Assembly (NCBI GenBank): GCA_035631035.1
Contig: DASQJL010000096.1
Coordinates: forward strand, 1,234-65,233
Source of the DNA: Candidatus Binatia bacterium
GTDB taxonomy: Bacteria > Eisenbacteria > RBG-16-71-46 > SZUA-252
Direction of reading: 5' to 3'
Length of the DNA: 64,000 nucleotides
Shown here: piece by piece, positions 7,490-57,625 of the stretch
Layout of the letters: every line of letters begins with the position of its first letter
Position numbering within the stretch: position 1 is the stretch's first letter
The notes under the pieces: model-generated
What the model was told of the DNA's origin: nothing
Database searches by the model: none
The model's input: the letters and a program-made list of their open reading frames with translations, nothing else
Made by a program: the position numbers and the translations under genes

Positions 7490-7548
7490 TCCATCCTCCC
7501 GGGCGCCGCAGCGCTCAAGCGTAGCATGGGACGGCGCCGCCGCGGGCA

Positions 7549-12116: not shown

Positions 12117-12378
12117 GCGGTAGCGCCGCAACGTAGCGGCGCCGTCCGCAGGGAAGGGCGAACCCCTGTGGGCGCTTGAGCGGACCGATGGGCCATCGGA
12201 AGTAGCCCCCCTGGTGGCCCGTCGTTTCGCGTTCGGTGGCGGAATGGAATCCAGGGGGGCGGCTGGCCAGCGGCGGGGGCGTATGATACCGTGGCCGGTC
12301 GTCTCCCAGCCACCGAACACGCACCGCGAAAAAGGGGCGCCGCCGTTGAGCAAACGTACCGCAGCCGAAATCGGGCTG

Positions 12379-14925
12379 ATGCTGCAATGCGATGTCCCCT
12401 CCGAAATTCCGGTGCTCCCTCTCATGAGCACCATCGTCTTTCCCCTCGGCGTCACCTCCATCCAGGTCCGGATCGAGCAGTCCAAAGCCCTCCTTCGCGA
12501 CCACTCCGACCCCGACACGCTCGTGGCCCTGGTCTACAGCCCGGCCAAGCGGGAGGAGGAGATCCGGCCGGAAGACCTGAGCCGGGTGGGACTCTCGGCC
12601 CGGGTCATTCGCATTCTCAACCTCCCCGGCGGAAACGTGCAGGTGACGCTGGAGGGATTGCGCCGGGTCGCCGTCGAGGAGTTCCTGCGCGTGGAGCCCT
12701 ACCTGGTCGCCCGAGTCACCTGCCCCGAGGAGCCGGTCCGGGACCCCGAGCAGGTGCACACCCTGATCCAGCGCATCCTGAAAGCGCTGCGGACTCTGTC
12801 TCAGGTGGACTCGGGCTACCCGGCCGAGCTGGACAACATCTTCAGCATGAACCTGGGAGACCCCGGGCTCTTCGCCGACACCGTTGCCTCGATCGTCCGC
12901 TTCCCGCTCGAGACCAAGAAGCGGGTGATCGAGGCGCTCGATGTCCAGGAGCGCCTCTCCCTGGTGGCCGAGGCGATCGACTCCGAGATCGCGCGCCTGA
13001 GCGTGGCCGAGGACGTCGTCCGGCGCACCAGCGCCCAGATGGAGAAGACCCAACGCGAGTTCTTCCTCCGCCAGCAGCTGATGGAGATCCGCCGGCTCCT
13101 GGGCGAGGACGACCCCCAGGAGATGCTGGTCCGCCAGATCCTGGACCGTTCGGACAGCCTGGCGCTCCCCTCCCACGTGCGGTCGGTGGTCCAGGAAGAG
13201 GCGAGCCGTCTCCGCCTCCTGCCTCCCACCGCGCAGGAGTCGGGAGTGATCCGGAACTACGTCGAGTGGGTCCTGTCGCTCCCCTGGACGCGCGACAAGC
13301 CGCACGACATCCGGCTGGAGGACGTGCAGCGCCGGTTGAACGAGGAGCACTTCGGCCTGGAGAAGGTGAAGGAGCGGATCCTCGAGTACTTATCCGTCCT
13401 CAAGCTGAAGAACGACATGCACGGTCCCATCCTCTGCTTCGCGGGACCCCCCGGCACCGGCAAGACCTCCCTCGGCGCCTCGATCGCGCGCGCGATGGGG
13501 CGCTCGTTCGTGCGGATGAGCGTGGGCGGCGTGCGCGATGAGGCCGAGATCCGCGGGCACCGGCGCACCTACGTCGGATCCCGCCCCGGGAAGATCCTCC
13601 GATCCCTTCGCGACGCGCGCTCCTCCAGCCCCGTGTTCATGATCGACGAGATCGACAAGCTGGGGCACGACTCCGACGGCGACCCCGCGTCGGCGCTGCT
13701 CGAGGTGCTGGACCCGGAGCAGAACCAGCACTTCGTGGACCACTTCATCGAGATCCCCTTCGACCTCTCCGATGTCCTCTTCATCACGACGGCCAACGTG
13801 CTCGACTTCATCCCCGGCGCCCTCCTCGACCGGTTGGAAGTGATCACCATCCCCGGCTACATGGAGGAGGAGAAGCTGGAGATCGCGCGGCGCCACCTGG
13901 TGCCCCGGGAATCGAAGGAGCATGGGCTGGCCGCGACCGACATCGCTTTCGACGACGCGGCGCTGATCAAGATCATCCGCGAGTACACGCGCGAGGCGGG
14001 CGTGCGGCAGCTGGAGCGCGCCATCGACACCTTCTGCCGCAAGGCGGCGCGGCAGCGCACGACCGGGTACACCGGCGACTGGCGCTTCTCGGTCGCGGAC
14101 GTCGAGCCGATCCTGGGCCCTCCCTACATCGTTCCCGACGTGGCGGAGGGGCACGCCGAGGTGGGCGTGGCCACCGGCCTCGCCTGGACGGCGACCGGTG
14201 GAGACCTGCTCCTCATCGAGGCGCTCAAGATGCGCGGCGCCGGGCGCGTCATCGTGACCGGACAGCTCGGCGACGTGATGAAAGAGTCGGTGCAGGCCGC
14301 CCACTCCTACGTTCGCGCGCGCGCGGAGCTGCTCGGGATCAACCCGCAGCTGTTCGACGACTACGATCTCCACATCCATTTCCCGGAGGGAGCGGTTCCC
14401 AAGGACGGTCCCTCGGCTGGGATCACGATCGTGATGGCGATCGCTTCGGCGCTGGCCGAGGCGCCGATCCGAAACGACGTGGCGATGACGGGAGAGGTGA
14501 CCCTCCGCGGCAAGGTGCTCGCCGTGGGCGGACTCAAGGAAAAGGTCATGGCCGCCTATCGCGCGGGGATCAAGACGGTCGTCTTCCCCGCGGACAATCA
14601 GAAGGACCTGGTCGAGATTCCCGAGTCGATCCGCTCCAAGCTCACCTTCGTCGCGGTGAGCACCGTGGACGAAGTCTTCCAGCACGCTTTCGCCGGCGTG
14701 GCCGAGCGGATCGCCCAGCTCGAGGCGCGGCGCAAGGCGCGCGAGGCGCTCAAGGCGAGGAAGGGGAAGGCGGCGAAGGAGAAGGCGGCGCGGCGGAGCA
14801 ACGGCAAGGCTCCGCGACGCGCGCGCCTCCCCAAGGCTGCGGGCGCCACGCAGGACGGCAAGCCGGCGCGCGGTAAGAACGGCCGGAACGGACCGGCGTC
14901 GCGCCCGCCTCATCGTTCCCGGTAG
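12379..14925 (+). CDS. lon: ATP-dependent Lon protease (LonA) with an unusual Lys/Arg/Ala-rich C-terminal tail of about 65 aa
   Basis: N-terminal [14 protein letters not shown]. Walker [10 protein letters not shown]. Catalytic Ser-Lys ([14 protein letters not shown]). The start could alternatively be the upstream TTG at 12348. Confidence 0.9.
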
Positions 14926-38184: not shown

Positions 38185-38568
38185 CTACGCGTCGCCCGTG
38201 GGAATGATCCCACGTCGCTCCACCATCAAGATCACGGTGCGCTCCGGGGCGCGCGTCCGGTGCACCACGCCCCTGGGCACCACGAATCCCTGCTGCGGCG
38301 ACAGCTCCACCGTGCGGCTCTCCAGGTCGATCAGCAGCCGGCCCTCCACCACGAAGAAGAACTCGTCCTCCTCGTCATGCTTGTGCCAGTGGTATTCCCC
38401 TCGGATCACGCCGAGTCGCACGACCGAATCGTTCACCTGGCAGAGGGTCTGGTTGTACCAGGGATGGGTGCAGGCGGCGGCGAGCGCGGAAACGTCGATC
38501 AGCTCCAAGGGCTCATAGCGCACGTCCATGTGCGTGTCGTAAGGGTAGTTCTTGGGGTCGTCGGCCAT
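38185..38568 (-). CDS. Cupin-domain protein
   Basis: Start MADDPKNYPYDTHMDV with a GGAG SD. Cupin motifs (HWHKHDEEDEFFFVVEGR ... GVVHR). Divergent from lexA and shares the LexA-box region. Confidence 0.75.
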   Translation of the reverse strand: MADDPKNYPYDTHMDVRYEPLELIDVSALAAACTHPWYNQTLCQVNDSVVRLGVIRGEYHWHKHDEEDEFFFVVEGRLLIDLESRTVELSPQQGFVVPRGVVHRTRAPERTVILMVERRGIIPTGDA

Positions 38569-38629
38569 GCTCCACTCCTCGGGAAAAGGACAAGAACGGC
38601 TGAGGATACTCCTCGGCTGAGCCGCCCCC

Positions 38630-38658
38630 TTGACAACTGCACAAACGTTCACTATCTT
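38630..38658 (+). promoter_or_regulatory. lexA promoter (TTGACA-17-TATCTT) with an embedded LexA box TGCACAAACGTTCA (38638-38651)
   Basis: The operator sits between the -35 and -10 elements. It is near-identical to the dinB cassette. It matches the Fibrobacter-type consensus TGCNCN4GTGCA with one half-site variant (GTTCA). Confidence 0.6.
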
Positions 38659-38669
38659 CCTTTTCAGCC

Positions 38670-39428
38670 ATGAAGAAGAAGCCCAACCCCAGCGGGGCCC
38701 GGGGAAAGCGGCCCCCCACGCGCACGCCCTCTCCCGAGGCGATCCTCTCCTACATCGAGGAGTCGCTTCGCGATACGGGCCGCCCGCCCACGATTCGGGA
38801 AATCGGAGCCGTCTTCGGGATCGCCTCCACCAATGGAGTCCGCTACCACCTCGATAAGCTGGAGCGGGAAGGCAGGATCCGGCGGGATCGATTCACCAGT
38901 CGAGGCATCGAAGTACAGTTGGCCGGCGGGCGCGGCGCGACGCATATGGACACCTTGCCCTCCATGTCGCCCGCGTTTCGCCGAGCCAACGTTCCTCGAG
39001 GGACTGTGGCTGGCGTCCCCGGTGGCCTTGAACGGGATCTCCTTGAAGTCCCCCTCCTGGGCCACGTCGCCGCCGGCGCGCCCCTCCTCGCCGAAGAGCA
39101 CATCGAGGACACCCTGACCCTCGACCCGGCGATGGTGCGGCCCGGCGGCAAGCACTTCGCCCTGCGGGTGCGCGGCGACAGCATGAAGAACGCCGGGATC
39201 CTGGACGGCGACGTGGTCATCGTCCGGCACGACACTCCCGTGAAGAGCGGCGAGATCGCCGTCGTGCTGATCGGCGACGAAGCCACCGTGAAGCGCTTCT
39301 TTCCGCGGCGCGACAAGCTCCTGCTATTTCCTGAAAACGAAGACTACGAACCGATCGAAGTGCGTCCGGCCGATCCCGACGTGCGGGTGGCGGGCAAGGT
39401 GGTGGGTGTATTTCGGAGGCTCGGCTGA
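38670..39428 (+). CDS. lexA: LexA repressor (HTH + S24 autopeptidase) with a Lys/Arg/Pro-rich N-terminal extension
   Basis: PTIREIGAVFGIASTNGVRYHL HTH. Cleavage-site region VAAG. Catalytic S (VRGDSMKNAGILDGD) and K (ATVKRF). Confidence 0.9.
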   Translation: MKKKPNPSGARGKRPPTRTPSPEAILSYIEESLRDTGRPPTIREIGAVFGIASTNGVRYHLDKLEREGRIRRDRFTSRGIEVQLAGGRGATHMDTLPSMSPAFRRANVPRGTVAGVPGGLERDLLEVPLLGHVAAGAPLLAEEHIEDTLTLDPAMVRPGGKHFALRVRGDSMKNAGILDGDVVIVRHDTPVKSGEIAVVLIGDEATVKRFFPRRDKLLLFPENEDYEPIEVRPADPDVRVAGKVVGVFRRLG

Positions 39429-39724
39429 TGCTCCATGCGCGATCGTTTCCATCCGAGAGAGACGGCTACTTCATGATCGAGTCCATCCACGACCCCATCG
39501 AGGTCATCACCATGTTCTCCGGCGGAACGATGAAGCCGATCCGCTTCCGCTGGAAGAACAAGACCGTGCGCATCGCCAAGGTGACGGGGGACTGGGTCCG
39601 GCACGAGGGGGAGAACAAGGTCCACTACTTCGCGCTTCTCGCCGACAACGCGGACTACTACGAGATCCGCTACGACGCGCGCGAGATGACCTGGCAGCTC
39701 ACGCGGGTGTGGATGGAGGGGTAG
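39428..39724 (+). CDS. Small protein (98 aa) translationally coupled to lexA (stop/start overlap TGATG)
   Basis: GGAGG SD 8 nt upstream of the ATG that overlaps the lexA stop. The sequence KPIRFRWKNKTVRIAKVTGDWVRHEGENKVHYFALLADNADYYEIRYDAREMTWQL is beta-rich and has no known motif. Confidence 0.5.
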   Translation: MLHARSFPSERDGYFMIESIHDPIEVITMFSGGTMKPIRFRWKNKTVRIAKVTGDWVRHEGENKVHYFALLADNADYYEIRYDAREMTWQLTRVWMEG

Positions 39725-40193
39725 CCCCGCTCCACGTCCACGAGCCGAGCAGGCGCTCACGCCGGCGCCCGGGCCAGCGGCGGAACTCCTCGGACGGAAC
39801 GAACCCGAGCAGGCTGTCGCAGTCCTGGCGCCGGATGAAGCGGACCCACCCCGACAGCGGTTCCCGAACGAGAACGACACGGCCGGCGAAGATCTCCTCC
39901 AGCGCTCCGATGACGGCGCCGAGGATGGCTCCATCGGACGCCGCGCCCCAGACCAGGATCTTCTCGGCGGGACCGGGAGGGACGCCGTCGTCGTAGGCGA
40001 TCGTCGCCCCCTCCTCGTAGAGGTCGGCGCGAAGCTCATGTCCGGGGCGGCCCGGCACCGGCAGACGGACCGACATGTGGACCGTCATGGAATCCACGCT
40101 CGGGTCCAGCTCCGGATGAAGGGCCCGTAGACGCGCGGCCAGGAGCGTCGCGACCCGGCGGGTCTGCTCGGTCAGGGTGAGCGCGTGCTTCAA
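39699..40193 (-). CDS. Hypothetical protein (about 165 aa)
   Basis: TTG start overlapping the HAD stop (TTGA). It converges on the small lexA-linked ORF with a 26-nt overlap. The gene boundary is uncertain. Confidence 0.4.
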   Translation of the reverse strand: MKHALTLTEQTRRVATLLAARLRALHPELDPSVDSMTVHMSVRLPVPGRPGHELRADLYEEGATIAYDDGVPPGPAEKILVWGAASDGAILGAVIGALEEIFAGRVVLVREPLSGWVRFIRRQDCDSLLGFVPSEEFRRWPGRRRERLLGSWTWSGATPPSTPA

Positions 40194-40939
40194 GGGATCG
40201 CGCCCTCGTCGACATGCCCCGGGGCATGTCGCAGCTCGGACAGGCTGCGCACGATGCGATCGGGGCGTACGTCGCTGCCCGATGGGATCCCCGCGCCTCC
40301 TCGGTCGATCCAGATGGCGTAGATCCCGAGGCGCTGCGGGGCGGCGACGTCCCATTCGAGATTGTCCCCGGCCATCCAGGTCTCGTGCGGCGCGGCCTGC
40401 AGCTCGTCCAGCGCGATCCGGTACACGCGCGGATCGGGCTTGCCGTAACCCAGCTCCCCCTCGATCAGAACCAAATCGAAGAGCTCGGCCAGCTGAAAGC
40501 GCACCACCTTGCTCCTCTGGGCAGCCGCGGCGCCGTTCGTGAGGAGGGCCAGCCTGCGGCCGCTCTGCTTGAACCAGCGCACGGTCTCGATCGCATCCTC
40601 CAGCGGCTGGAGGCCCAGGTGCCGCTGGGCGCGATAGTGCTCCGCGATCTTCTCGGCCAGCTCCGGCGACTCGAGCCCGATCTCCACGAGCGAAGCGCGT
40701 ACGACCTCCCGCCGCGCGGCATCCAGGTCCAGGCGCCCCTCCCGATGGCGCTCGGGATCGGACCAGAACCACGCGCGCGTTTTCTCGATGACGGCGTGGA
40801 GCGCGGAGGGATCGACCGCGCCCAGCTCGTCGCGGTGGGCGCGGCAGGCCTCCAACCAGCAGTGGGAGACGTTGCCGCTGTCGTCGAGGATCGTGTCGTC
40901 GAGATCGAGGAGGACGGCCTTGGGAAGGGCTCCGGTCAC
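40190..40939 (-). CDS. HAD-superfamily hydrolase
   Basis: Motif I LLDLDDTILD. Motifs II and III (LLTNG, GDNLEWD). Confidence 0.8.
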   Translation of the reverse strand: MTGALPKAVLLDLDDTILDDSGNVSHCWLEACRAHRDELGAVDPSALHAVIEKTRAWFWSDPERHREGRLDLDAARREVVRASLVEIGLESPELAEKIAEHYRAQRHLGLQPLEDAIETVRWFKQSGRRLALLTNGAAAAQRSKVVRFQLAELFDLVLIEGELGYGKPDPRVYRIALDELQAAPHETWMAGDNLEWDVAAPQRLGIYAIWIDRGGAGIPSGSDVRPDRIVRSLSELRHAPGHVDEGAIP

Positions 40940-40949
40940 GGGCGCCGTC

Positions 40950-41750
40950 TCAAGCCCTGCTCCCGCGCACGGCCCACGCGCGCGCGATCAGGTGGATCGA
41001 GCCGTCCGCCTCGACCGGCAGCCGCGAGCGGATTCGGTCCCGCAGCGCGCCCCGGCGCGCCTCTTCCAGCGACATGGCGTAGCCCGGCGCGGGGCCCTGG
41101 CCGCCGAGGAAGGGGGACCAGTAGTCGTCGAAATCGCGAAACACGGTCGGGACGTCGATCGCACGCGTCCGGACGTCGCTCAGGTGCCCTCCGGAAAATA
41201 CATCGGCGAGCGCCTCGGGGTGGCAGAGCGGGAATCGGGTCCCTTCGTCCAGCTCGCGGGCCGCGGGATCGAGGGCGATGGCGGCGTCCCAGAAATGCCG
41301 GAGCAGCTCCATGCGCCCCGAGTAGTCCCAGACATAGGCCGCGGCGACGCCTCCGGGGCGGAGCGCGCGAGACATCTCGCCCACGGCGAGTGCCGGCTCC
41401 GGAACGAAGTTGAGGAGCAGGGCGGAAACCGCTGCGTCCACCGAGGCGTCCTCGACCGGAAGCGATCGGGCGTCGCCCACCTCGAACGTCGCGACCGTGC
41501 GCTCCCCGATGCGCGCACGGGCGTAGTCGACGTACGCGGGGGAGGCGTCGATGCTCCGCACCGACCGGGGGCTGGAGCGATCGAGAAGGGTCTGGGTCAA
41601 GGCACCGGTGCCGCACCCGACGTCGAGCCAGGCCCTGCCCGGCGGCACGTCGAGCCACGCGAGGAATTCGGGGGCCACGCGACGGCTCCATCGGCCGACG
41701 AAGGGCTCGTAGAGGTCGCCCGCGGCCCAGACGTCTTCGGGGGTCATCAC
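40950..41750 (-). CDS. Class I SAM-dependent methyltransferase
   Basis: Motif I LDVGCGTGALT. Divergent from dinB. Confidence 0.8.
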   Translation of the reverse strand: MMTPEDVWAAGDLYEPFVGRWSRRVAPEFLAWLDVPPGRAWLDVGCGTGALTQTLLDRSSPRSVRSIDASPAYVDYARARIGERTVATFEVGDARSLPVEDASVDAAVSALLLNFVPEPALAVGEMSRALRPGGVAAAYVWDYSGRMELLRHFWDAAIALDPAARELDEGTRFPLCHPEALADVFSGGHLSDVRTRAIDVPTVFRDFDDYWSPFLGGQGPAPGYAMSLEEARRGALRDRIRSRLPVEADGSIHLIARAWAVRGSRA

Positions 41751-41781
41751 GACAGTTTACTTGCCCCTTGCGGGCGCCATC

Positions 41782-41810
41782 TTGACAACTGCACAAATGT
41801 GCAATATCGT
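41782..41810 (+). promoter_or_regulatory. dinB operon promoter (TTGACA-17-TATCGT) with a perfect palindromic LexA box TGCACAAATGTGCA (41790-41803)
   Basis: Same cassette architecture as at lexA. It matches TGCNCN4GTGCA exactly. Confidence 0.65.
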
Positions 41811-41882: not shown

Positions 41883-43154
41883 GTGCGGATCGTGGCGCAC
41901 ATCGACATGGATGCCTTTTTCGCCTCGGTCGAGGAGAAGCTGAACCCGCGGCTCGCGGGAAAGCCGCTGGTCGTGGGAGGGTCCAGGGACAGCCGCGGGG
42001 TCGTCTCGGCGGCCAACTACGCGGCGCGTCCGTACGGGATCCACGCCGGCATGCCGATTGCCGAGGCGGTGCGCCTCTGTCCTGAAGCGGCCTTCATCGA
42101 AGGCGACCCCAGGAAGTACGTTCACATCTCTCTCCAGATCCTCGACACGCTGAAAGACTTCACCCCCATCGTCGAGCCGTTCAGCATCGACGAGGCGTTC
42201 CTCGACCTGACCGCGGTGGAGCGTCTTCGTCCTCGAACGGAAGACGGCGACCACGAGACCTGCCTGAACGCGGCGATCCCGCTCGCCCAGGCGATCCAGC
42301 GCGCGGTGCATCGGCGCGTGGGGCTGACGGCCTCGATCGGGATCGCCCCCAACAAGTACGTCGCCAAGATGGGGAGCGGCCTCCGGAAGCCGAACGGGCT
42401 CACGGTGCTCTCGATCCGCCGCTTTCGCGAGATCTTCGAATCGAAGCCGGTCAACGAGCTGTGGGGGATCGGAGAGAAGACGGCGGCTTCGCTCGCCACA
42501 CTCGGCATCCGCACGGCGGGGCAGCTCGCCCGCTTTCCCCGGGAGTTCCTGACCTATCATTTCGGGCTGAGCGGCGATCACATGCAGGATGCCGCGCGGG
42601 GCGACGACGAATCCGAGGTGGTGCCCTACTTCGAAGGGGTGCCGGTCAAGTCGATGGGGCACGAGTACACGCTGCCGGAGGACGTGTCGGATCGCGAGCG
42701 CATCCGCGCGCACCTCCTCCGCCTGAGCGATCAGGTGGGCCGACGCCTTCGCGTCGACGGATACCTGGGCCGTGTGATCGCGGTGAAGTTCCGCAATGCG
42801 CGCTTCAAGACCACCATCCGCCAGCGCGCGCTGGCCGAGGTGACCGACGACGAGAACGTCATCTATGGCACCGCGTGCATCCTCCTCGACGAGAACTGGG
42901 ACGGAAAGCCGCTGCGCCTGGTCGGCGTCTCGGTGTCGGACCTCGTCTCGGCGCAGGGATTCCATCAGCACGATCTCTTCTCCACCGACGAGCGCCGGCG
43001 AAGAATGACCGAGGCTGCGGATTCGCTGCGGAACAAGTTCGGGGACGCGGTCCTGGTGCGGGCGGGAGCGCTGGATCATGGCGACACGCAGCGCCTCTCT
43101 CGTGAGGGAGCCAGTCGGAGTCTCGTCCGGGTCCTCGCCGACGAGCGACGATGA
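41883..43154 (+). CDS. dinB: DNA polymerase IV (Y-family, DinB)
   Basis: N-terminal IVAHIDMDAFFASVEE and SIDEAFLDLT catalytic motifs. Confidence 0.9.
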   Translation: MRIVAHIDMDAFFASVEEKLNPRLAGKPLVVGGSRDSRGVVSAANYAARPYGIHAGMPIAEAVRLCPEAAFIEGDPRKYVHISLQILDTLKDFTPIVEPFSIDEAFLDLTAVERLRPRTEDGDHETCLNAAIPLAQAIQRAVHRRVGLTASIGIAPNKYVAKMGSGLRKPNGLTVLSIRRFREIFESKPVNELWGIGEKTAASLATLGIRTAGQLARFPREFLTYHFGLSGDHMQDAARGDDESEVVPYFEGVPVKSMGHEYTLPEDVSDRERIRAHLLRLSDQVGRRLRVDGYLGRVIAVKFRNARFKTTIRQRALAEVTDDENVIYGTACILLDENWDGKPLRLVGVSVSDLVSAQGFHQHDLFSTDERRRRMTEAADSLRNKFGDAVLVRAGALDHGDTQRLSREGASRSLVRVLADERR

Positions 43155-44143
43155 GCGACCGACCCAAGATCGTGCTCGGCACCTCGGGATGGTCCTTCAA
43201 GGACTGGGTGGGGCCCTTCTATCCGCCCGGCACGAATCGGGCGCACATGCTGGACTACTACGCGGGCGAGTTCCAGGCGGTCGAGGTGAACTCCACCTAT
43301 TACCGGATTCCGCACTGGCGCACGTTCGAGGCGATCGCGAAGAAGACGCCTCCCGGGTTCGAGATCGTCGTGAAGACGCACCACGACATGACGCACCTGC
43401 GCTCCCGCGAGCCCGATCTCTACCGGGACTTCGAGCGCTCCATCCAGCCGCTGCTCGAGGCGGGGAAGCTCACGGGGATCCTCGCGCAATTCCCCTACGC
43501 GTTCCGGCGCACGCGTGAAAACGAGGAGTTTCTTCACGCCCTGCCCGACCTCCTCGGCCGATGGGTACCGCTCTTCGTGGAGTTCCGCCACCGGTCCTGG
43601 GTGGACGACGCCGTCTTTCAGGATCTCCAGAAGGAGGGCCTTGGCTACGTCAGCGTGGACGAGCCGGACCTTCCGGGCCTGGTCCCGCCGATCGCGCGCC
43701 GCACGGGGCCGATCGGGTACGTCCGCTTTCATGGCCGGAACAAGGAGAAGTGGTGGGGGGCCGAGTCGCGCGATCGAGGGGCGCCCGACGGGCCGGGAGT
43801 GAAGCGGGATGCCGCGAAGAGCGCAACGCCCGATGACAGGGGCAAGGCCCGCACGCGAGTCCGCGCCGGTGCGGACTTGGGCCCGCTCTTCAGCGGCACT
43901 CCCGACCATCCCGCCGAGGCGCCACCCTTGCCGGCTCCGCCCGCCTCCGAGCCGCGCACGTCCAGCACGCGCTACGACTGGTCCTACACCGAAGAGGAGC
44001 TGCGCGAGTGGATGGACAAGATCCGTGAGATGACGCAGCAGGCCAAGAAGACGTTCGTCTTCTTCAACAACTGCCACGTGGGGCAGGCGGCGACCAGCGC
44101 CAAGCTGATGCGGAAGCTGCTCGAGGGGGAGGGGATGCTGTGA
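43151..44143 (+). CDS. DUF72 (YecE/TM1631-like TIM-barrel) protein with an inserted low-complexity segment
   Basis: N-terminal IVLGTSGWSFKDWVGPFYP and C-terminal FVFFNNCHVGQAATSA, typical of DUF72. ATGA overlap with dinB. Confidence 0.8.
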   Translation: MSDRPKIVLGTSGWSFKDWVGPFYPPGTNRAHMLDYYAGEFQAVEVNSTYYRIPHWRTFEAIAKKTPPGFEIVVKTHHDMTHLRSREPDLYRDFERSIQPLLEAGKLTGILAQFPYAFRRTRENEEFLHALPDLLGRWVPLFVEFRHRSWVDDAVFQDLQKEGLGYVSVDEPDLPGLVPPIARRTGPIGYVRFHGRNKEKWWGAESRDRGAPDGPGVKRDAAKSATPDDRGKARTRVRAGADLGPLFSGTPDHPAEAPPLPAPPASEPRTSSTRYDWSYTEEELREWMDKIREMTQQAKKTFVFFNNCHVGQAATSAKLMRKLLEGEGML

Positions 44144-44168: not shown

Positions 44169-46676
44169 ATGACGGGCGGGGGTGTCGCGGGGGGAAGCGA
44201 TTTCGTCCACGGGCCGGGACTCTTCGACGCCGAGCGCGGCGAGCGCGGGCCGCGTTCCGGCGCTCCCGAGACCCTGGACGAGTACGAGGCGCTCCTGCAG
44301 GCGCTCACCTCGCGGGACCGTCGATTTGTCCACGGTCCCTACGGGCTCCGCCGCCGTCCGAACGAGCTGGTGCACCTGGAGCGCCTCCCGGCCCGGCCCG
44401 CCGTGTACGGCGACCTCGCCGAGCCTCTGCCGCAAGCGCTCCAGGGCGTGCTACGCGAGGCGGGCATCGAACGCCTCTACACCCACCAGGCCCAGGCGGT
44501 GGATCTCGCGCGCTCCGGCGCGAACGTCGCCGTCGCAACGGGCACCGCGTCGGGGAAGTCGCTCGCCTATCACCTGCCGATCCTCGAGCGGCTCCTCCTC
44601 CAGCCGGGCGCCACCGCGCTCTACCTGTTTCCGACCAAGGCCCTCGCCCAGGACCAGCTGCGCGGCCTCCTGCGCTTCGCCGCGGCGTCTCCAGCGCTCG
44701 GGCGCGCGCTCGCGACCGGCACCTACGACGGAGACACTCCCGGCGAGTCGCGCCGCAAGCTCCGCGAGCGCGCCAACGCGATCCTCACGAACCCCGACAT
44801 GCTCCACCAGGGGATCCTCCCGTACCACTCCCGATGGAGCCGGATCTTCTCCAACCTGCGCTACGTCGTGGTGGACGAGATGCATACCTATCGCGGCGTG
44901 TTCGGGTCCCACGTCGCCAACGTGCTCCGACGGCTGAAGCGGATCGCGCGCCACTACGGCGCCGATCCCCGCTTTCTTCTGAGCTCCGCCACCATTCGAA
45001 ATCCGCGCGAGCTGGCGGAGTCGCTGGTCGGGGAGCCGGTCCGTGTCGTGGACGAGGATGGCGCGCCCCGCGGACCCAAGCTCTTCGCGTTCTGGAATCC
45101 CAGACATGCCGGTCCCGAGCAGGCGGGCGCGCGAACCTCCACGTCGATCGAAGCCGAGCGCATCCTGGTCTCGCTCATCCGGCGGCAGGTCGCCTCGATC
45201 GCGTTCACGCGGTCGCGCGTCTCCGCCGAGCTGATCTACCGCTACGCGCGCGAGCAGCTGGAGGAGCGGGGGCGCCGCCGCGCCGAGAAGGCCGAGGGCG
45301 GGGCGGTCCCGCTCGCCGACCGGCTGAGTCCCTACCGCGGCGGCTACCTTCCCGAGGAACGGCGCGCCATCGAGCGCCGCCTCTTCGACGGGGACCTCCT
45401 CGGCGTCATCTCGACGAACGCGCTCGAGCTGGGGATCGATGTCGGGTCGCTGGACGCGGCCGTGCTCGTCGGCTTCCCCAACACCATCGCGAGCACCTGG
45501 CAGCAGGCGGGGCGCGCGGGCCGCTCGCAGGCGCCGTCGCTCGCGATCGTCGTCGCCTACGACGATCCGATCGATCAGTACCTGATGCGCCACCCCGAGT
45601 ACTTCTTCGCGCAATCGCCGGAGAGCGCCGTCGTGGATCCTTCCAACCCCTACGTGCTCGCGTCGCACCTCGCCTGCGCCGCGCACGAGCTGCCGCTCTC
45701 GCGCGCCGACGAGGTCTGGTTCGGGCCGAGGGCCGAGGCGCTCGGGCGCCTGCTGGAAGAGGAAGGCACCGTCAAGTCGCTCGACGGCCTCCGTTACTGG
45801 TCTTCGTCCGAATATCCGGCGGGGCGGGTCAACCTGCGCACCATCTCCGACGACACCTACACCATCCTCGAGCGGAAGCCCGGCGCTCCGGAAGCGGAGG
45901 CGAGGACCCTGGCCACGGTGGACGCGATCAGCGCGCCGGAGCTGATCTACCCCGAGGCGATCTATCTGCACGAGGGAGACACCTGGTTCGTGCGCGAGCT
46001 GGACCTGCAGCAGAAGGTCGCCTACGTCGAGCGGCAGGAGGTGGACTACTACACGCAGCCGGTGCTGGACACGCGGCTGCGGCTGACCGAGACCCGCGAA
46101 ACGAAGCGCTGCGGCGAGTGCGAGGTGGGCCTGGGGACAGCGAACGTCTCCTGGGCCACCGTCGCCTTCAAGAAGATCCGCTTTCGGAGTCTCGATGCCA
46201 TCGGCTATCACCCGCTCGATCTCCCCCGCCTGAACCTGGACACGGTGGCGCTCTGGATCCGCCCCGACGAGTCGGCGCGCGCGGCGGTGCGCGTGAAGGG
46301 GATGAATCCCGCCGAGGGGATGTCGGGACTCCGCAATCTGCTCGTCACGCTGCTTCCGCTTCACGCCATGTGCGACCGGCCGGACCTGGGAGGCGTCCTC
46401 GACAGCGCGAACCTCGGCGAGCAGGCGATCTTCCTCTACGACCGCTACCCGGGCGGGCTGGGCTACGCGGAGCGCGGCTACGCCATCGTGGACGACCTCC
46501 TGCGCGCGACGCTCCGCATGATCGAGGACTGCCCCTGCGAGATCGGGTGTCCCTCGTGCGTCGGCCTCCCGGTCCTCCGCCCCGCGCAGCAGCAGGACTA
46601 CGACCTGCACGGCGGCTGGCCCATCCCGAACAAGGCCGCCACGGAGGCGCTGCTCCGGCGCCTTCTCGGGGCCTGA
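44169..46676 (+). CDS. mrfA: MrfA-like DEAD/DEAH-box helicase with C-terminal DUF1998 zinc-binding domain
   Basis: Walker A ATGTASGKS. DEMH box (VVVDEMHTY). Helicase C motifs. C-terminal CPCEIGCPSCV cluster (DUF1998). Confidence 0.85.
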   Translation: MTGGGVAGGSDFVHGPGLFDAERGERGPRSGAPETLDEYEALLQALTSRDRRFVHGPYGLRRRPNELVHLERLPARPAVYGDLAEPLPQALQGVLREAGIERLYTHQAQAVDLARSGANVAVATGTASGKSLAYHLPILERLLLQPGATALYLFPTKALAQDQLRGLLRFAAASPALGRALATGTYDGDTPGESRRKLRERANAILTNPDMLHQGILPYHSRWSRIFSNLRYVVVDEMHTYRGVFGSHVANVLRRLKRIARHYGADPRFLLSSATIRNPRELAESLVGEPVRVVDEDGAPRGPKLFAFWNPRHAGPEQAGARTSTSIEAERILVSLIRRQVASIAFTRSRVSAELIYRYAREQLEERGRRRAEKAEGGAVPLADRLSPYRGGYLPEERRAIERRLFDGDLLGVISTNALELGIDVGSLDAAVLVGFPNTIASTWQQAGRAGRSQAPSLAIVVAYDDPIDQYLMRHPEYFFAQSPESAVVDPSNPYVLASHLACAAHELPLSRADEVWFGPRAEALGRLLEEEGTVKSLDGLRYWSSSEYPAGRVNLRTISDDTYTILERKPGAPEAEARTLATVDAISAPELIYPEAIYLHEGDTWFVRELDLQQKVAYVERQEVDYYTQPVLDTRLRLTETRETKRCGECEVGLGTANVSWATVAFKKIRFRSLDAIGYHPLDLPRLNLDTVALWIRPDESARAAVRVKGMNPAEGMSGLRNLLVTLLPLHAMCDRPDLGGVLDSANLGEQAIFLYDRYPGGLGYAERGYAIVDDLLRATLRMIEDCPCEIGCPSCVGLPVLRPAQQQDYDLHGGWPIPNKAATEALLRRLLGA

Positions 46677-46709: not shown

Positions 46710-47714
46710 ATGCTCTCCAAGACACTCCGGGACAGGATCGGGGGGCTGCTCCGGCAAGGCGCTCTGGACATTCCGGTCCCGCACGGGAACGGAGATTCGA
46801 ATGGCCATGCGGCCGCGCCCCCGCTGTTCACCCCCGAGCCGCGTCGCCACTTCGTCGCGACGGGGATCGAGGAGATCCTTCCCGGCGGCGTGATCGAGAC
46901 CGCGCAGGGGACCGTCTTCGCGCATGAGCGGCTCTACACCGATCTGGGAGAGCGTCCCGTACCCCTCCTCCGCCGGCTGGCCGAGCTCTGCGCCTACCCC
47001 GGGTGCGCGCCGGAGCGCCATGGAACGGGTCCACACTGGGTCGAGATCCCCGGCGTCGACTGCCCCTATCCCGCGCTCCCGGAACGCGCGCGCGCGCGCC
47101 GGCGCCGGCCGCGGGATCTGGCGGAGGCGACGGGCCTTCACGACCCTCCGGAGCAGGGGATGTTTCGCCGGTTCGGATACCGGCGCGTGCTCTACTTGGA
47201 CATCGAAACGTGCGGGCTCTCGGCGGCGCCGGTGTTCCTGGTCGGGCTCTGCATGGTGGGGGAGCGGAATCTCATCCTGCGCCAGCTCTTCGCGCGGGAC
47301 TACGCCGAGGAGCGGGCGCTCCTGGTGGAGCTCAAGCGCCTGGCCGGGGAGCACGACTTCCTCGTGACCTTCAACGGCAAGGCGTTCGACGTGCCCTTTC
47401 TTCGCGACCGCGCCGTGCATCACCGCCTCGATCCGCCGATCGCGATGCCCCACCTGGACCTGCTCTGGATGGCGCGCCGGCGCTGGAAGGATCTCCTTCC
47501 GGACTGCAAGCTGAAGACGATCGAATGGCGGGTGCTCCGGCGGAGGCGCGCGGGCGACGTGGGAGGATCGGAGATCCCCGGGCTCTACCACGACTACGTG
47601 AAGCGGGGCGAGGCCCACCGGCTGCTTCCGGTGTTCCATCACAACCTGCTCGACGTGGTCGCGATGGTGGAGCTGACGCCGGTCATCTTCGACCCGGATG
47701 TCGGGATCTACTAG
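46710..47714 (+). CDS. mrfB: MrfB-like RNase H-fold (DEDDh) 3'-5' exonuclease
   Basis: Exo I motif YLDIETCGL. Exo II FNGKAFDVPFL. Exo III H..D (HHNLLDVVAM). Confidence 0.75.
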   Translation: MLSKTLRDRIGGLLRQGALDIPVPHGNGDSNGHAAAPPLFTPEPRRHFVATGIEEILPGGVIETAQGTVFAHERLYTDLGERPVPLLRRLAELCAYPGCAPERHGTGPHWVEIPGVDCPYPALPERARARRRRPRDLAEATGLHDPPEQGMFRRFGYRRVLYLDIETCGLSAAPVFLVGLCMVGERNLILRQLFARDYAEERALLVELKRLAGEHDFLVTFNGKAFDVPFLRDRAVHHRLDPPIAMPHLDLLWMARRRWKDLLPDCKLKTIEWRVLRRRRAGDVGGSEIPGLYHDYVKRGEAHRLLPVFHHNLLDVVAMVELTPVIFDPDVGIY

Positions 47715-54859: not shown

Positions 54860-57625
54860 ATGCGCTTTGCTCCCATCGCCCTGACCACGGCTGCCGTCCT
54901 GATCGCGACCGCCGCCCTGGGACCCGCCGGTCCCGCCGTCGCCGCGCCGAACCTGATCCGCACCCTTCCCAACAAGATGACGGTCATCGTCCGGGAGAAC
55001 CGTTCGCGCCCGCTCGCCACGGTCCAGGTCTGGATCGACGCGGGAAGCCGCGACGAGACCCGCAGCGAGCGGGGGGCCGCCTCGGTGCTCTCGTATCTTC
55101 CGTACGAGGAGACCTCCGCCCGGAAGCGCGGCGAAGTCCACAAGGAAGCGGAGTCCTTCGGCGGCACCCTGGGAAGCGAGTCGGGCTACTCCAGCATCAT
55201 CTACAACATGACGGTGCCCGCGCGGTACCTGAGCCGGGCGGTCGATATCCTGAGCGACGCCGTCCTCCATCCCTCCTTCAACCAGTACACGCTGGAGCAG
55301 TCGGTGGCCAAGGCGCGCCGGGAGTCCCGCGGCGTCCTGAGCGCGGCCGGCGGCGTCAGCCTGAACACGCTCCGGGAGTCGCTCTACGGCGACACGCCTC
55401 CCGGGACGCCGCTCCATGCGCCCGAGCTGGAGGTGGCGGCGCTCACGCTCCCGATCGTCCAGCGCTACTACAAGGAGAACTTCGTCGCCGACAGGATCAC
55501 GGTGGTCGTGGTCGGCGACATCGAGGCCGAACCCGTGGCCGATCAGATCGCGGCGGCCTTCAAGGACGTGCCCACCGGCAAGTCGCGCCCGCACCCGCGC
55601 GTCGCCCCGCCCAAGGAGCTCAAGGATCCCATCGTGCGCTCGGTGCCCAACCCGCCCGACGCCGACGGCTCGGTCGTGGCCGCGGGATTCCGCGCACCGC
55701 TCTGGGGCACCGCCGACGCAACCGCGCTCGACGTCCTGCTCGCCGTGCTCGTCGACGCTCCCGGCTCGCGGCTCGAGCGCCGGCTGCGCGAGGGGGGCAA
55801 CGACTTCGGAGCGGCCGCGGCCCAGCGCTCGTTCGGACCCGATCCGGGGTCGGTGGCCCTGGTCCTCTCGGCAGACCCCGCGCGGATGCCCGATGCGGAG
55901 GGGATCCTGGTTCAGGAGATCGAGAAGATTCGCGCGCAGCCGGTCACGGCCGAGGAGTGCCAGGCCGCCATCCGCTCCATTCTCACGCGCGAGCTGATGT
56001 CGCGCTCGGAGCTCTGGGGACTGGGGCGCGCCACCGCGCTCGCCTATTACCAGGGGCGTCCCGGCGCCGACGAGGTGTACGCGCAGCGCGTGAGCGCGGT
56101 GCGGCCCGAGGACCTGTCCGGAGTCGCGCGCAAGTATCTCGACTGGAAGAACGGCGCCGTCGTCGAGATGATGTCTCGGCGCACGGCCGACAGCCTCGGC
56201 ATCGCCAAGGAGTTCCCGAAACGGTTCCAGGAGAAGCTCTCGCTGTACCAGGGCACCTACCGCAGCGGCCCGCTCGCCACGGCGAGCACCGATGAGGAGC
56301 GCCGCGCGCGCATCGACCAGCCGCTCGCTTCGATCTCCCGGGATCCCTTCGATGCGGGGCGCGGCCGCGTGGAGCGCGCCAGGCTCGCGGGCGGCATCCG
56401 GCTCCTGACCGGCCAGGACCGAAGCGCCCCCGGCGTGACGGTGGCGGTCTATCTGAACGGCGGCGTGCGCTGGGAGAACGACAAGAACAACGGCATCACC
56501 TCGCTCGTCCGCGAGACGCTCTTCAATACGAACGACCCCAAGCGGAACGGCCTCGCCTACCGGCAGTCGCTCTCCCTCCTGGGATCGTTCACGCCCTACC
56601 AGGATCGGGACATGTGGGGGGTCTCGCTCGCGGTGCCCTCGTCCGACTGGAAGGAAGCGCTCAACCGGATCGGCGCGATGATGTCCCACCCGGACCTGGA
56701 CTCGGTGACGGTGGATGCCACGCGGATCCTGCTCCTCACCGCCCTCGACAAGTGGATGGAAGACGACGCGGCCCAGCGGCAGCGGCTCATCTTCGCGACG
56801 AAGTACCAGGTGAGCGGCTACCGGCTTCCCGGCGTGGGGAACAAGGTGAACCTCATCTCGCTTCCGACGTCGGCGATCGCGGCCTATTACCGGAAGTTCG
56901 TGGTGAAGCCGAACCTGTTCGTCGCGGTCTTCGGCGACGTGAACCCCTCCGAGGTCGGTCCCGCGGTGGAGGAGGCGTTCCGCGACGTGAGCGCGGGACC
57001 CTTCAACCCGGGCGAGCCGCCCATGGATCTGCCGTTCCCCGGCTTCCGCGAGAAGTGGGAGCTGGGCGCGGGCTCGCTCACCACCATTCAGCTCGCCTTC
57101 AACGGCCCCCCGGCAAACAGCCCGGACATGCCCATTTTCTACGTCGTGAACTCGCTGCTCTCGGGACCGTACGGCTGGTTCCAGAAGTACGTCATGGCCG
57201 AGCCGACGGCGCAGAGCGCGAACTCGATCGTGGCGCAGGCGATCGACGAGTCTCCGATCATCGCCTCGCTCACCATCGGCGGCTCGGTGGAGGAGGAGGC
57301 GATGGTCAAGCTGCTCTTCCGGCAGTTCAAGAAGGTCGCCGGGATGGAGCTGATCGGCCCCGATCTGGATCAGGACCTCCGGAACGCGAAGACGCACGCC
57401 ATCGGCAGCTTCTACGGAACGTTCACGACGAATACGTCCCGCGCCTTCCAGTGGGCTCGCGCCGACCTGTTCGGGCTTCCGCCCGACGACCTGCTGGCGC
57501 TCCCCTCCAAGATGGACGCGGTGACTCCGGGCGATCTCCTGCGGGTCGGGACGCGCTACTTCCAGCGCGGAGACTGGGAGAAGGCGCCGTACGCCATCGC
57601 GGAGACGCGGCCCGGCGGCTGGTAG
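54860..57625 (+). CDS. Secreted M16-family (insulinase-like) protein with two M16 units, both lacking the HxxEH zinc site
   Basis: Signal peptide. M16 fold pattern, but GAASVLSYLPYEET and the second unit have no His-x-x-Glu-His. Predicted non-catalytic. Confidence 0.75.
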   Translation: MRFAPIALTTAAVLIATAALGPAGPAVAAPNLIRTLPNKMTVIVRENRSRPLATVQVWIDAGSRDETRSERGAASVLSYLPYEETSARKRGEVHKEAESFGGTLGSESGYSSIIYNMTVPARYLSRAVDILSDAVLHPSFNQYTLEQSVAKARRESRGVLSAAGGVSLNTLRESLYGDTPPGTPLHAPELEVAALTLPIVQRYYKENFVADRITVVVVGDIEAEPVADQIAAAFKDVPTGKSRPHPRVAPPKELKDPIVRSVPNPPDADGSVVAAGFRAPLWGTADATALDVLLAVLVDAPGSRLERRLREGGNDFGAAAAQRSFGPDPGSVALVLSADPARMPDAEGILVQEIEKIRAQPVTAEECQAAIRSILTRELMSRSELWGLGRATALAYYQGRPGADEVYAQRVSAVRPEDLSGVARKYLDWKNGAVVEMMSRRTADSLGIAKEFPKRFQEKLSLYQGTYRSGPLATASTDEERRARIDQPLASISRDPFDAGRGRVERARLAGGIRLLTGQDRSAPGVTVAVYLNGGVRWENDKNNGITSLVRETLFNTNDPKRNGLAYRQSLSLLGSFTPYQDRDMWGVSLAVPSSDWKEALNRIGAMMSHPDLDSVTVDATRILLLTALDKWMEDDAAQRQRLIFATKYQVSGYRLPGVGNKVNLISLPTSAIAAYYRKFVVKPNLFVAVFGDVNPSEVGPAVEEAFRDVSAGPFNPGEPPMDLPFPGFREKWELGAGSLTTIQLAFNGPPANSPDMPIFYVVNSLLSGPYGWFQKYVMAEPTAQSANSIVAQAIDESPIIASLTIGGSVEEEAMVKLLFRQFKKVAGMELIGPDLDQDLRNAKTHAIGSFYGTFTTNTSRAFQWARADLFGLPPDDLLALPSKMDAVTPGDLLRVGTRYFQRGDWEKAPYAIAETRPGGW

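Follow-up and report, generated by a model that had tools for sequence, protein, structure and literature searches.

The DNA analysed here is a stretch of 64,000 nucleotides (nt), referred to as the window, from contig DASQJL010000096.1 of a soil bacterium placed in the Eisenbacteria. It carries what is probably a split SOS operon (rough probability 0.8), in which the gene of the LexA repressor is followed by an open reading frame of 98 amino acids (aa); this encodes an ImuB-C protein that would act as the small partner of a DinB-type polymerase encoded further downstream. By gene content and order the locus adds a further example to the known lexA–imuB-C–polY operons, and does so for a new phylum. 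Two features go beyond the known module: an extension by the genes DUF72, mrfA and mrfB, and an operator that accompanies each fragment of the split operon.

The Eisenbacteria are placed near the Fibrobacteres-Chlorobi-Bacteroidetes group. The NCBI listing carries them as a candidate phylum (Candidatus Eiseniibacteriota), and a literature search yielded no paper connecting them with LexA. The promoters and core genes of the window are:

38629–38656, + strand: promoter-operator cassette of lexA, CTTGACAACTGCACAAACGTTCACTATC, with -35 TTGACA at 38630–38635 and -10 TATCTT at 38653–38658
38638–38651, + strand: LexA box of lexA, TGCACAAACGTTCA, with one mismatch in the right arm (GTTCA)
38670–39428, + strand: lexA, 252 aa, predicted autocleavable SOS repressor (TIGR00498, LexA_DNA_bind, Peptidase_S24)
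39415–39419, + strand: GGAGG Shine-Dalgarno sequence of imuB-C, lying inside lexA near its 3′ end and separated by 8 nt from the ATG
39428–39724, + strand: imuB-C, 98 aa, standalone ImuB-C/DUF6504 family (PF20114), predicted DinB accessory subunit
41781–41808, + strand: promoter-operator cassette of dinB, CTTGACAACTGCACAAATGTGCAATATC, with -35 TTGACA at 41782–41787 and -10 TATCGT at 41805–41810
41790–41803, + strand: LexA box of dinB, TGCACAAATGTGCA, a perfect palindrome
41883–43154, + strand: dinB, 423 aa, Pol IV-type Y-family polymerase with intact catalytic motifs (Pfam IMS, IMS_C, IMS_HHH)

The 98-aa protein encoded behind lexA

An earlier, sequence-only reading of this DNA had taken the 98-aa protein to be unknown. 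Homology searches place it in the ImuB-C/DUF6504 family. PF20114 (DUF6504) is the sole Pfam family reported for it (26.7 bits, cut-off 24.2), and several close and distant homologs carry a precomputed PF20114 match. An exhaustive profile search (E ≤ 1e-3) gives 513 clusters at 50% identity; nearly all members are 80–88 aa long and start at Met16 of the query. A second protein search with a 53-sequence profile adds only a handful of more distant homologs. Among the 53 aligned sequences W89 is invariant, and at least 90% have W at position 42; R39 and R41 of the basic motif RFRW are conserved in the close homolog set. The standalone family was defined from GSU0042-like proteins, and the ImuB-C domain is described as a largely beta-stranded unit of ~80 residues in which a Trp near the C-terminus and two basic residues are conserved (Aravind, Anand and Iyer 2013, PMC3765255).

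A tblastn search of plasmid sequences shows a match (E = 2e-3) to a "hypothetical protein" of Geobacter anodireducens plasmid pSD. The hidden Markov model of the family aligns with this small protein over its full length at 68.2 bits, and the gene order there is lexA–small protein–dinB (a plasmid copy, not GSU0042 itself).

The AlphaFold2 model of the 98-aa protein (predicted local distance difference test score 88.9) displays seven strands in an all-beta barrel, with no predicted hydrophobic helix or transmembrane segment. A fold search of the PDB with this model gave no match. A published survey describes the ImuB-C domain of ImuB as a beta-barrel whose fold appears to be new, and counts ImuB-C among the putative regulatory subunits that bind polymerases (Timinskas and Venclovas 2026, PMC12926913). 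A full-text literature search for "ImuB-C" yielded no experiment on a standalone ImuB-C, a search for DUF6504 yielded no paper, and a 2021 Deinococcus review states that the role of standalone ImuB-C is still to be elucidated. Judged from its sequence, the 98-aa protein thus belongs to a family that is described and experimentally unstudied.

Related loci were collected with the 98-aa protein and a 6-sequence alignment in a scan that took a single genome for each GTDB species and reaches mostly Eisenbacteria. It yielded 35 loci, nearly all titled Candidatus Eisenbacteria metagenome-assembled genomes (MAGs) with 77–98% identity to the 98-aa protein; a few are more distant, including one from a Krumholzibacteriia MAG. 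With four soil-metagenome contigs these make 39 related loci, and the comparison set, window included, amounts to 408 kb.

The stop codon of lexA (TGA, 39426–39428) shares one base, the A, with the ATG of imuB-C (39428–39430). The TGATG overlap and the separate GGAGG, both noted in the sequence-only reading, are confirmed at positions 39415–39430. A stop-start overlap or a gap of at most 5 nt is kept in the relatives, and most Eisenbacteria loci have the overlap. The reading frame itself is conserved behind lexA in relatives, with a ratio of non-synonymous to synonymous substitution rates (dN/dS) of 0.03–0.35, i.e. under strong purifying selection. ImuB-C is more conserved than LexA or DinB of the same loci (in L011, 89% against 63% for LexA), and imuB-C retains a cassette of its own when it lies apart from lexA. 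The comparison supports imuB-C as a genuine and conserved gene, controlled by LexA and coupled to lexA in translation.

The protein displays a clade-specific N-terminal extension of 15 residues. A mis-called start was considered and rejected: in comparison with L007 all 4 changes in the first 15 codons are synonymous (0 non-synonymous), so that these codons are under coding constraint, and the extension is kept where the gene has its own promoter. A protein of 1346 aa (P0041) with 8 profile-matching stretches was discarded as a surface repeat protein and a false positive.

Seven contigs of the comparison set (L005, L009, L010, L026, L027, L033, L037) are titled Omnitrophota, Bacteroidota, Limnocylindrales, Acidobacteriota, Hyphomicrobiales, Binatia and Saccharimonadales. 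Their imuB-C is 77–98% identical to the window gene in six and 53% in L037, and the operon layout is the same where flanking DNA is available. These titles probably stem from contamination in the binning of MAGs rather than from horizontal transfer.

Promoter-operator cassettes and the LexA box

Both cassettes have the architecture that the sequence-only reading described: TGCAC-N4-GT(G/T)CA is embedded in the 17-nt spacer between TTGACA and TATC(T/G)T. They are identical at 25 of 28 positions. Searched as a degenerate 28-mer with up to 3 mismatches, they are the sole sites in the 64 kb (0.00 expected from shuffles). TGCAC-N4-GTKCA is found at the two cassette sites only (0.06 expected), and relaxed LexA-box searches of the window gave, beyond these, chance-level matches only. 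A sigma-70 promoter scan called both cassettes independently (TTGACA, 17 nt, TATCTT or TATCGT, 10/12 matches); they are its sole hits in 5.2 kb, where shuffles give a mean of 0.3. The cassette lies 11 nt before the ATG of lexA (38670) and 74 nt before the GTG of dinB (41883).

The cassette had also been called duplicated. Two matching units are indeed present, but an origin by duplication is unsupported: since the flanks are unrelated and the likeness is limited to the functional 28 nt, a duplication is indistinguishable from the same selection acting on two sites.

A relaxed cassette pattern occurs 45 times in the 408 kb, always on the coding strand and at most 200 nt upstream of lexA, imuB-C or dinB. 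Its distribution follows the organization of the genes. It precedes lexA, where this heads a unit, in 27 of the 28 related loci with a visible promoter, unit-heading dinB in 10 of 12 loci and unit-heading imuB-C in 7 of 13; genes lying directly behind a neighbour have none (0/40), nor does dinB directly behind imuB-C (0/15 loci). Loci with lexA, imuB-C and dinB in one block (e.g. L007, L011–L013, L017, L020) have one cassette; those in which dinB stands apart (the window, L006, L008–L010, L014, L018) have two; and L022, with each of the three genes on its own, has three.

The unit heads that have no cassette fall into two groups. In L031 and L033 the gene stands behind a small co-directional inserted gene and is still within the operon. 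The other group consists of the distant loci L036–L039, where the strict pattern is unmatched; even so, TGCAC-N4-GTGCA boxes whose spacers deviate are present in L036 upstream of both lexA and imuB-C. The small open reading frame between lexA and imuB-C in L031 (5570–5954) was assigned to no family by any tool. Two open reading frames in L036 (5110–5478 and 5507–5947) look by eye like a VOC/glyoxalase-type protein and an IS200-type transposase.

The cassette consensus is cTTGACA-nn-TGCACAAATGTGCA-(C/G)-TATC(T/G)T, and the arms are often extended to ACTGCAC/GTGCAGT. The GTTCA mismatch of the lexA box is common to the window and its closest relatives L005, L006 and L009. L008 and L010 each have two boxes that are unlike one another in the central four bases. 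Because the palindrome lies in the promoter of lexA itself in nearly all loci and otherwise only before unit-heading imuB-C or dinB, there is strong comparative evidence that it is the LexA operator of this lineage, as the sequence-only reading had proposed, and that lexA, imuB-C and dinB are core SOS genes.

The repressor itself gives high profile scores (TIGR00498, 182.7 bits, cut-off 110.95; PF01726, the N-terminal winged-helix DNA-binding domain, 53 bits; PF00717, the C-terminal S24 peptidase domain, 113 bits). Its translation shows the Ala-Gly cleavage site HVAAG|APLL, the serine in RGDSMKNAG and the lysine in EATVKRF. The palindrome in the lexA promoter spacer, in the window as in the 27 relatives, points to autoregulation. 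The distance from the first T of TTGACA to the lexA start is 36–45 nt in 24 of 27 loci, which places the start, with no Shine-Dalgarno sequence before it, 7–16 nt past the -10 hexamer (promoters of L001–L035); in the window (38653–38672) the ATG is 11 nt past it. From this spacing, the lexA transcript probably has no leader, or one of at most 5 nt. LexA has a basic, Pro-rich N-terminal tail of ~22 residues (38670–38735), and its DNA-binding and peptidase domains are joined by a linker of ~45 residues, which is unusually long (38910–39040); relatives vary in length in these parts.

The box had been labelled Fibrobacter-type. The LexA box of Fibrobacter succinogenes is reportedly TGCNC-N4-GTGCA. 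The Eisenbacteria consensus TGCAC-AAAT-GTGCA fits this pattern exactly, and in the window there is one mismatch at lexA. The Eisenbacteria arms, however, often read ACTGCAC-N4-GTGCAGT, and the cassette is found in contigs of 37–72% G+C, which means that its presence does not mark out one particular phylum.

The exact 22-nt sequence TTGACA-NN-TGCACAAATGTGCA was found at no fewer than 126 sites in metagenome loci (at least 126, over that G+C range). At least 65 of them precede lexA, imuB-C or dinB in various combinations, and at least 36 lie before the gene of a small protein whose C-terminus reads CP(D/E)CG..(M/L)(I/V)R.G.C..CP.CG(F/Y/W)..C, a gene absent from the window. The C-terminus of this zinc-ribbon protein gives a weak NCBIfam match (E ~5e-6) to the tail of B12-dependent (class II) ribonucleotide reductase and no Pfam match. 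In every longer segment inspected the gene is followed by those for a Hel308-like helicase (~880 aa) and a Lon N-terminal-domain protein. To our knowledge this operon has not been described as an SOS module. It is found in lower-G+C contigs (L050:4870, L056, L076, L092, L130, L143, L165), with a first gene of 50–130 aa. By eye from the translations, a few other metagenome cassettes stand before a gene for a sigma factor, a topoisomerase, an HD-domain protein or, directly, a helicase.

Other lineages, which differ in LexA specificity, have a Cheo-type box ahead of imuB-C–polY, either CGAAC-N4-GTTCG or the variant GAAC-N4-GTT (L047:2060–2100, L049:2045–2075). In L040, L043 and L045 such a box lies between TTGAC(A/C) and TATAAT/TATACT, ~100–130 nt upstream of position 5001.

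The probable polymerase partner and the split operon

DinB matches PF00817 (161 bits), PF11799 (102 bits) and PRK02406 (307.9 bits, cut-off 256), and its catalytic carboxylates are present in DMDAFFASVE and SIDEAFLD. At the C-terminus a clamp-binding motif, QHDLF, is followed by AADSLRNKFGDAVLVRAGAL, which resembles the N-terminus of RecA; judged by eye, its counterpart is residues 15–31 of E. coli RecA (LGQIEKQFGKGSIMRLG). All 14 aligned ImuB-C-linked polymerases have QxxLF and then A-x-D-x-(L/I)-R-x-(R/K)-(F/Y)-G. Clamp-binding and RecA-N-terminus-like motifs have been reported for ImuB-C-linked polymerases (Timinskas and Venclovas 2019, PMC6511836).

Homologs of the 98-aa protein at 25–36% identity have a Y-family polymerase gene directly downstream, within a few bases or overlapping, in six of six contexts; one of these is lexA–imuB-C–polY and the other five have no adjacent lexA. 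In 15 Eisenbacteria loci as well the polymerase gene is immediately downstream of imuB-C, most commonly with a spacing of 6 nt. On this genomic evidence the conserved partner of imuB-C is dinB, not lexA. The polymerases of L040 (5259–6533), L043 (5257–6537) and L045 (5222–6622) do not have the DMDAFF motif (e.g. LRLFQLPAAAEQ); by this sign they are inactive, ImuB/ImuY-like proteins paired with a standalone ImuB-C. The motif is present in the other aligned polymerases, DinB of the window among them.

The common Eisenbacteria order is lexA–imuB-C–dinB–DUF72–mrfA–mrfB, uninterrupted in L011–L013, L017, L020 and L023. In the window the remaining genes of this series and those that interrupt it are:

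39699–40193, - strand: convergent hypothetical gene, 164 aa, no Pfam or NCBIfam match; its last 26 nt overlap imuB-C
40190–40939, - strand: HAD-family hydrolase (Pfam), a passenger between imuB-C and dinB
40950–41750, - strand: class I S-adenosylmethionine-dependent methyltransferase (Pfam), a passenger between imuB-C and dinB
43151–44143, + strand: DUF72 gene (Pfam DUF72, 198 bits), with a 4-nt overlap with dinB
44169–46676, + strand: MrfA/YprA-family helicase (PF00270, PF00271, PF22982 (WHD_HRQ1), PF09369 (MZB, the MrfA Zn-binding domain, 76.6 bits))
46710–47714, + strand: MrfB-like exonuclease of RNase-H fold (PF13482 (RNase_H_2), 115 bits)

The three minus-strand genes between imuB-C and dinB are present in the window and in the near-identical L006. 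The HAD gene is found at this place also in L006, L008, L009 and L010, and the insert is missing in L007 and 10 other loci that have imuB-C and dinB 6 nt apart. The 26-nt overlap of the convergent gene with imuB-C had raised the suspicion that one of the two gene models is wrong. The overlap is confirmed, but neither model looks wrong: the same overlap is present in L005 and L006 (87% aa identity), with a dN/dS of 0.33 for the convergent frame.

The gaps between DUF72 and mrfA (25 nt) and between mrfA and mrfB (33 nt) are short, and all three genes are on the same strand as dinB. The helicase scores 759 bits against TIGR03817, below the cut-off of 874. Adjacency of dinB and DUF72 is kept wherever both fall within an Eisenbacteria locus; mrfA and mrfB are downstream of DUF72 in most loci, some with gaps of 1–2.5 kb or other genes before mrfA. 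DUF72 is a TIM barrel related to UV-damage endonuclease (PMC11791011). The arrangement suggests that DUF72, mrfA and mrfB are probably transcribed from the dinB cassette, and genes of the mitomycin-repair type appear to be LexA-controlled here. The window may be read as an SOS operon that was interrupted recently, with dinB–DUF72–mrfAB remaining under LexA by virtue of a second promoter-operator unit. In the relatives, too, the SOS operon seems to be a frequent target of insertions. The locus showed neither ImuA nor DnaE2, and none of the long open reading frames scanned in the window matched a polymerase III alpha subunit.

On the other side of lexA lies one further gene:

38185–38568, - strand: divergent cupin gene (Cupin_2), a lineage-specific neighbour outside the SOS system

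Shared regulation of this gene with lexA had been suggested. It is unlikely to matter: in the closest relatives L005 and L006 the cupin gene is missing between the upstream 491-aa gene and lexA, and the 491-aa gene abuts the lexA promoter. Elsewhere in the window are genes for a Lon protease and two M16 (insulinase-type) peptidases (12214–14925; 4625–8656, - strand; 54860–57625), all without a LexA box.

Proposed function and alternatives

The proposed course of events begins with a LexA dimer on the palindrome between -35 and -10, which, from the position and conservation of the site, would exclude RNA polymerase. Upon DNA damage, filaments of RecA on single-stranded DNA would trigger self-cleavage of LexA at the Ala-Gly bond through its Ser/Lys dyad; the residues are seen in the translation and the activity is predicted from them. 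Cleavage would derepress both units, lexA–imuB-C and dinB–DUF72–mrfAB. Because the lexA box has the GTTCA mismatch and the dinB box is perfect, the first unit is probably less tightly repressed than the second. The spacing suggests that lexA would be translated from its leaderless or near-leaderless mRNA, and imuB-C by coupling through the GGAGG and the TGATG overlap. The ImuB-C beta-barrel most likely binds DinB and, together with RecA and the clamp, would form a translesion complex, as gene adjacency and published modelling suggest. Such a complex would be analogous to UmuD′2C-RecA and to the ImuB-C domain within ImuA-ImuB-DnaE2. DUF72 and MrfAB would add excision capacity.

The closest known system is the Geobacter lexA–imuB-C–polY operon, which is damage-induced and co-transcribed (PMC6511836, citing Jara et al. 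2003). The window resembles this "GeoPolY-like" group (2019) in gene order, in the autoregulated lexA, in the homologous small protein and in the clamp-binding and RecA-N-terminus-like motifs. It differs in phylum, Eisenbacteria not being among the delta-proteobacteria, Deferribacteres, Planctomycetes and Clostridia listed for that group, and in its box, TGCAC-N4-GTGCA as opposed to GGTT-N10-AACC in Geobacter (PMC8565304). It also adds DUF72–mrfA–mrfB, the split into two LexA-controlled units, and the 15-residue extension of ImuB-C.

ImuA-ImuB-DnaE2 systems are likewise LexA-controlled mutagenesis modules; their ImuB-C domain is part of ImuB or, in Deinococcus, a protein of its own. However, the polymerase of the window has retained the catalytic carboxylates, in contrast to the inactive ImuB and ImuY. 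E. coli Pol V (UmuD′2C–RecA) and Bacillus YqjW–YqjX may be compared in that an SOS-induced, small, beta-rich subunit is combined with a Y-family polymerase and RecA (PMC6511836, PMC12926913). This is an analogy and not homology: ImuB-C does not have the SH3-like barrel of UmuD′ and YqjX (PMC12926913), nor an S24 self-cleaving domain.

Several points weigh against the proposal. In the window imuB-C is 2.2 kb from dinB, and in L015 and L025–L028 it stands alone with its own cassette, so that a polymerase-independent role is possible. The link of the family to ImuB's C-terminal domain is reproduced weakly here. Residues 427–481 of the Agrobacterium pAt ImuB give a weak, co-linear match to PF20114 (17.7 bits, below cut-off), and hhalign of the family with a single ImuB C-terminus gives a likewise weak E-value of 7.5e-4 (probability 25%, 52 co-linear columns), as weak as the published E ~1e-4 (PMC3765255). 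Operator function of the palindrome is predicted from comparative genomics, and the second cassette need not be a copy of the first. Finally, neither the window nor the related loci nor the genes behind the cassettes yielded a recA, so the genes seen here may be only part of the regulon.

The alternative that survives best, itself an unlikely one, is that ImuB-C is a damage-recognition or DNA-binding adaptor that recruits DinB, DUF72, MrfAB and others (Aravind et al.), and not a polymerase subunit. This would agree with the solo imuB-C genes just mentioned, which lie away from dinB with their own cassettes, with the place of imuB-C in a larger repair operon including DUF72 and MrfAB, and with the occurrence of standalone ImuB-C beside Ku/ligase, SplB and SRAP as well as polymerases (PMC3765255). 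However, its tightest and most widespread linkage is to a polymerase gene, with gaps of 2–12 nt or overlaps, and published AlphaFold models put the ImuB-C domain at the DnaE2 and ImuA interfaces, not on DNA (PMC12926913).

It is much less probable that ImuB-C acts on LexA, for example by modulating its cleavage or DNA binding. The stop-start overlap with lexA in most Eisenbacteria loci would be explained in this way, and the better conservation of ImuB-C compared with LexA is compatible with it. Such a role is at odds with the distant homologs, five of six of which have no adjacent lexA, as is also the case in L038 and L039, and with L016, L022 and L028, where imuB-C is apart from lexA and yet has its own operator.

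There is also little reason to regard the palindrome as the site of a regulator other than LexA, or as a conserved promoter feature without a repressor. The identical 22-nt cassette does precede unrelated genes in metagenomes (zinc-ribbon protein, helicase, sigma factor, topoisomerase), but most of these extra targets are DNA-metabolism genes, consistent with a wider SOS regulon. The palindrome is a perfect inverted repeat with size and spacing typical of LexA boxes, it is found in the promoter of lexA itself in 27 of 28 loci and otherwise before classic SOS genes, and in other lineages a Cheo-type box has the same promoter position at imuB-C–polY.

The sequence-only reading had suggested an SOS-induced effector, for example a cell-division inhibitor like SulA, YneA or SidA. 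The hallmarks of these proteins are the SulA fold, a LysM domain with a transmembrane segment in YneA, and in SidA the form of a small hydrophobic membrane peptide. The 98-aa protein is small, LexA-controlled and co-expressed with lexA, and small SOS division inhibitors are notoriously non-homologous between lineages, but the idea is scarcely credible for a family of hundreds of clusters that adjoins a Y-family polymerase gene in every context examined, with or without lexA, that is probably related to the ImuB C-terminal domain, and whose model is a compact soluble beta-barrel with no transmembrane segment. The likeness is limited to size and LexA control; sequence, fold and gene context show no resemblance, and the protein matches neither SulA nor LysM, only DUF6504.

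A role of ImuB-C as polymerase partner would bear on a widespread family: standalone ImuB-C, with its 513 clusters, has been predicted since 2013 to control error-prone polymerases, and the Eisenbacteria offer an unusually clean comparative case. That imuB-C keeps a LexA operator when separated, and is more conserved than its neighbours, argues for a dosage-sensitive, damage-specific role. The lexA–imuB-C–polY module is extended to a candidate phylum and linked to DUF72 and MrfAB under the same operator, and the operator consensus may be used for predicting SOS regulons in the Eisenbacteria and other lineages that share the cassette. In annotation, the "hypothetical" gene behind lexA should be named ImuB-C family protein.

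A wider proposal is speculative and on balance doubtful: SOS in the Eisenbacteria could be largely one LexA-gated supra-operon that couples translesion synthesis, by a Pol IV gated through ImuB-C with its clade-specific N-terminal arm, to MrfAB-type adduct excision, with the 28-nt unit re-created at each insertion, and the same unit could run the undescribed zinc-ribbon–Hel308-like–Lon-N operon elsewhere.

Genes related to DUF5131 were seen near some of these loci. Plasmid pPRO1 of Pelobacter propionicus (L171:4001–4204) has an unannotated ImuB-C-like frame (tblastn E = 0.2) near DUF5131 and UvrD-like helicase genes. In L151 an open reading frame behind dinB is DUF5131-like, by eye from its N-terminal sequence. 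In L043 a radical-SAM gene with a weak DUF5131 match lies ~1.3 kb downstream of the polymerase gene on the opposite strand.

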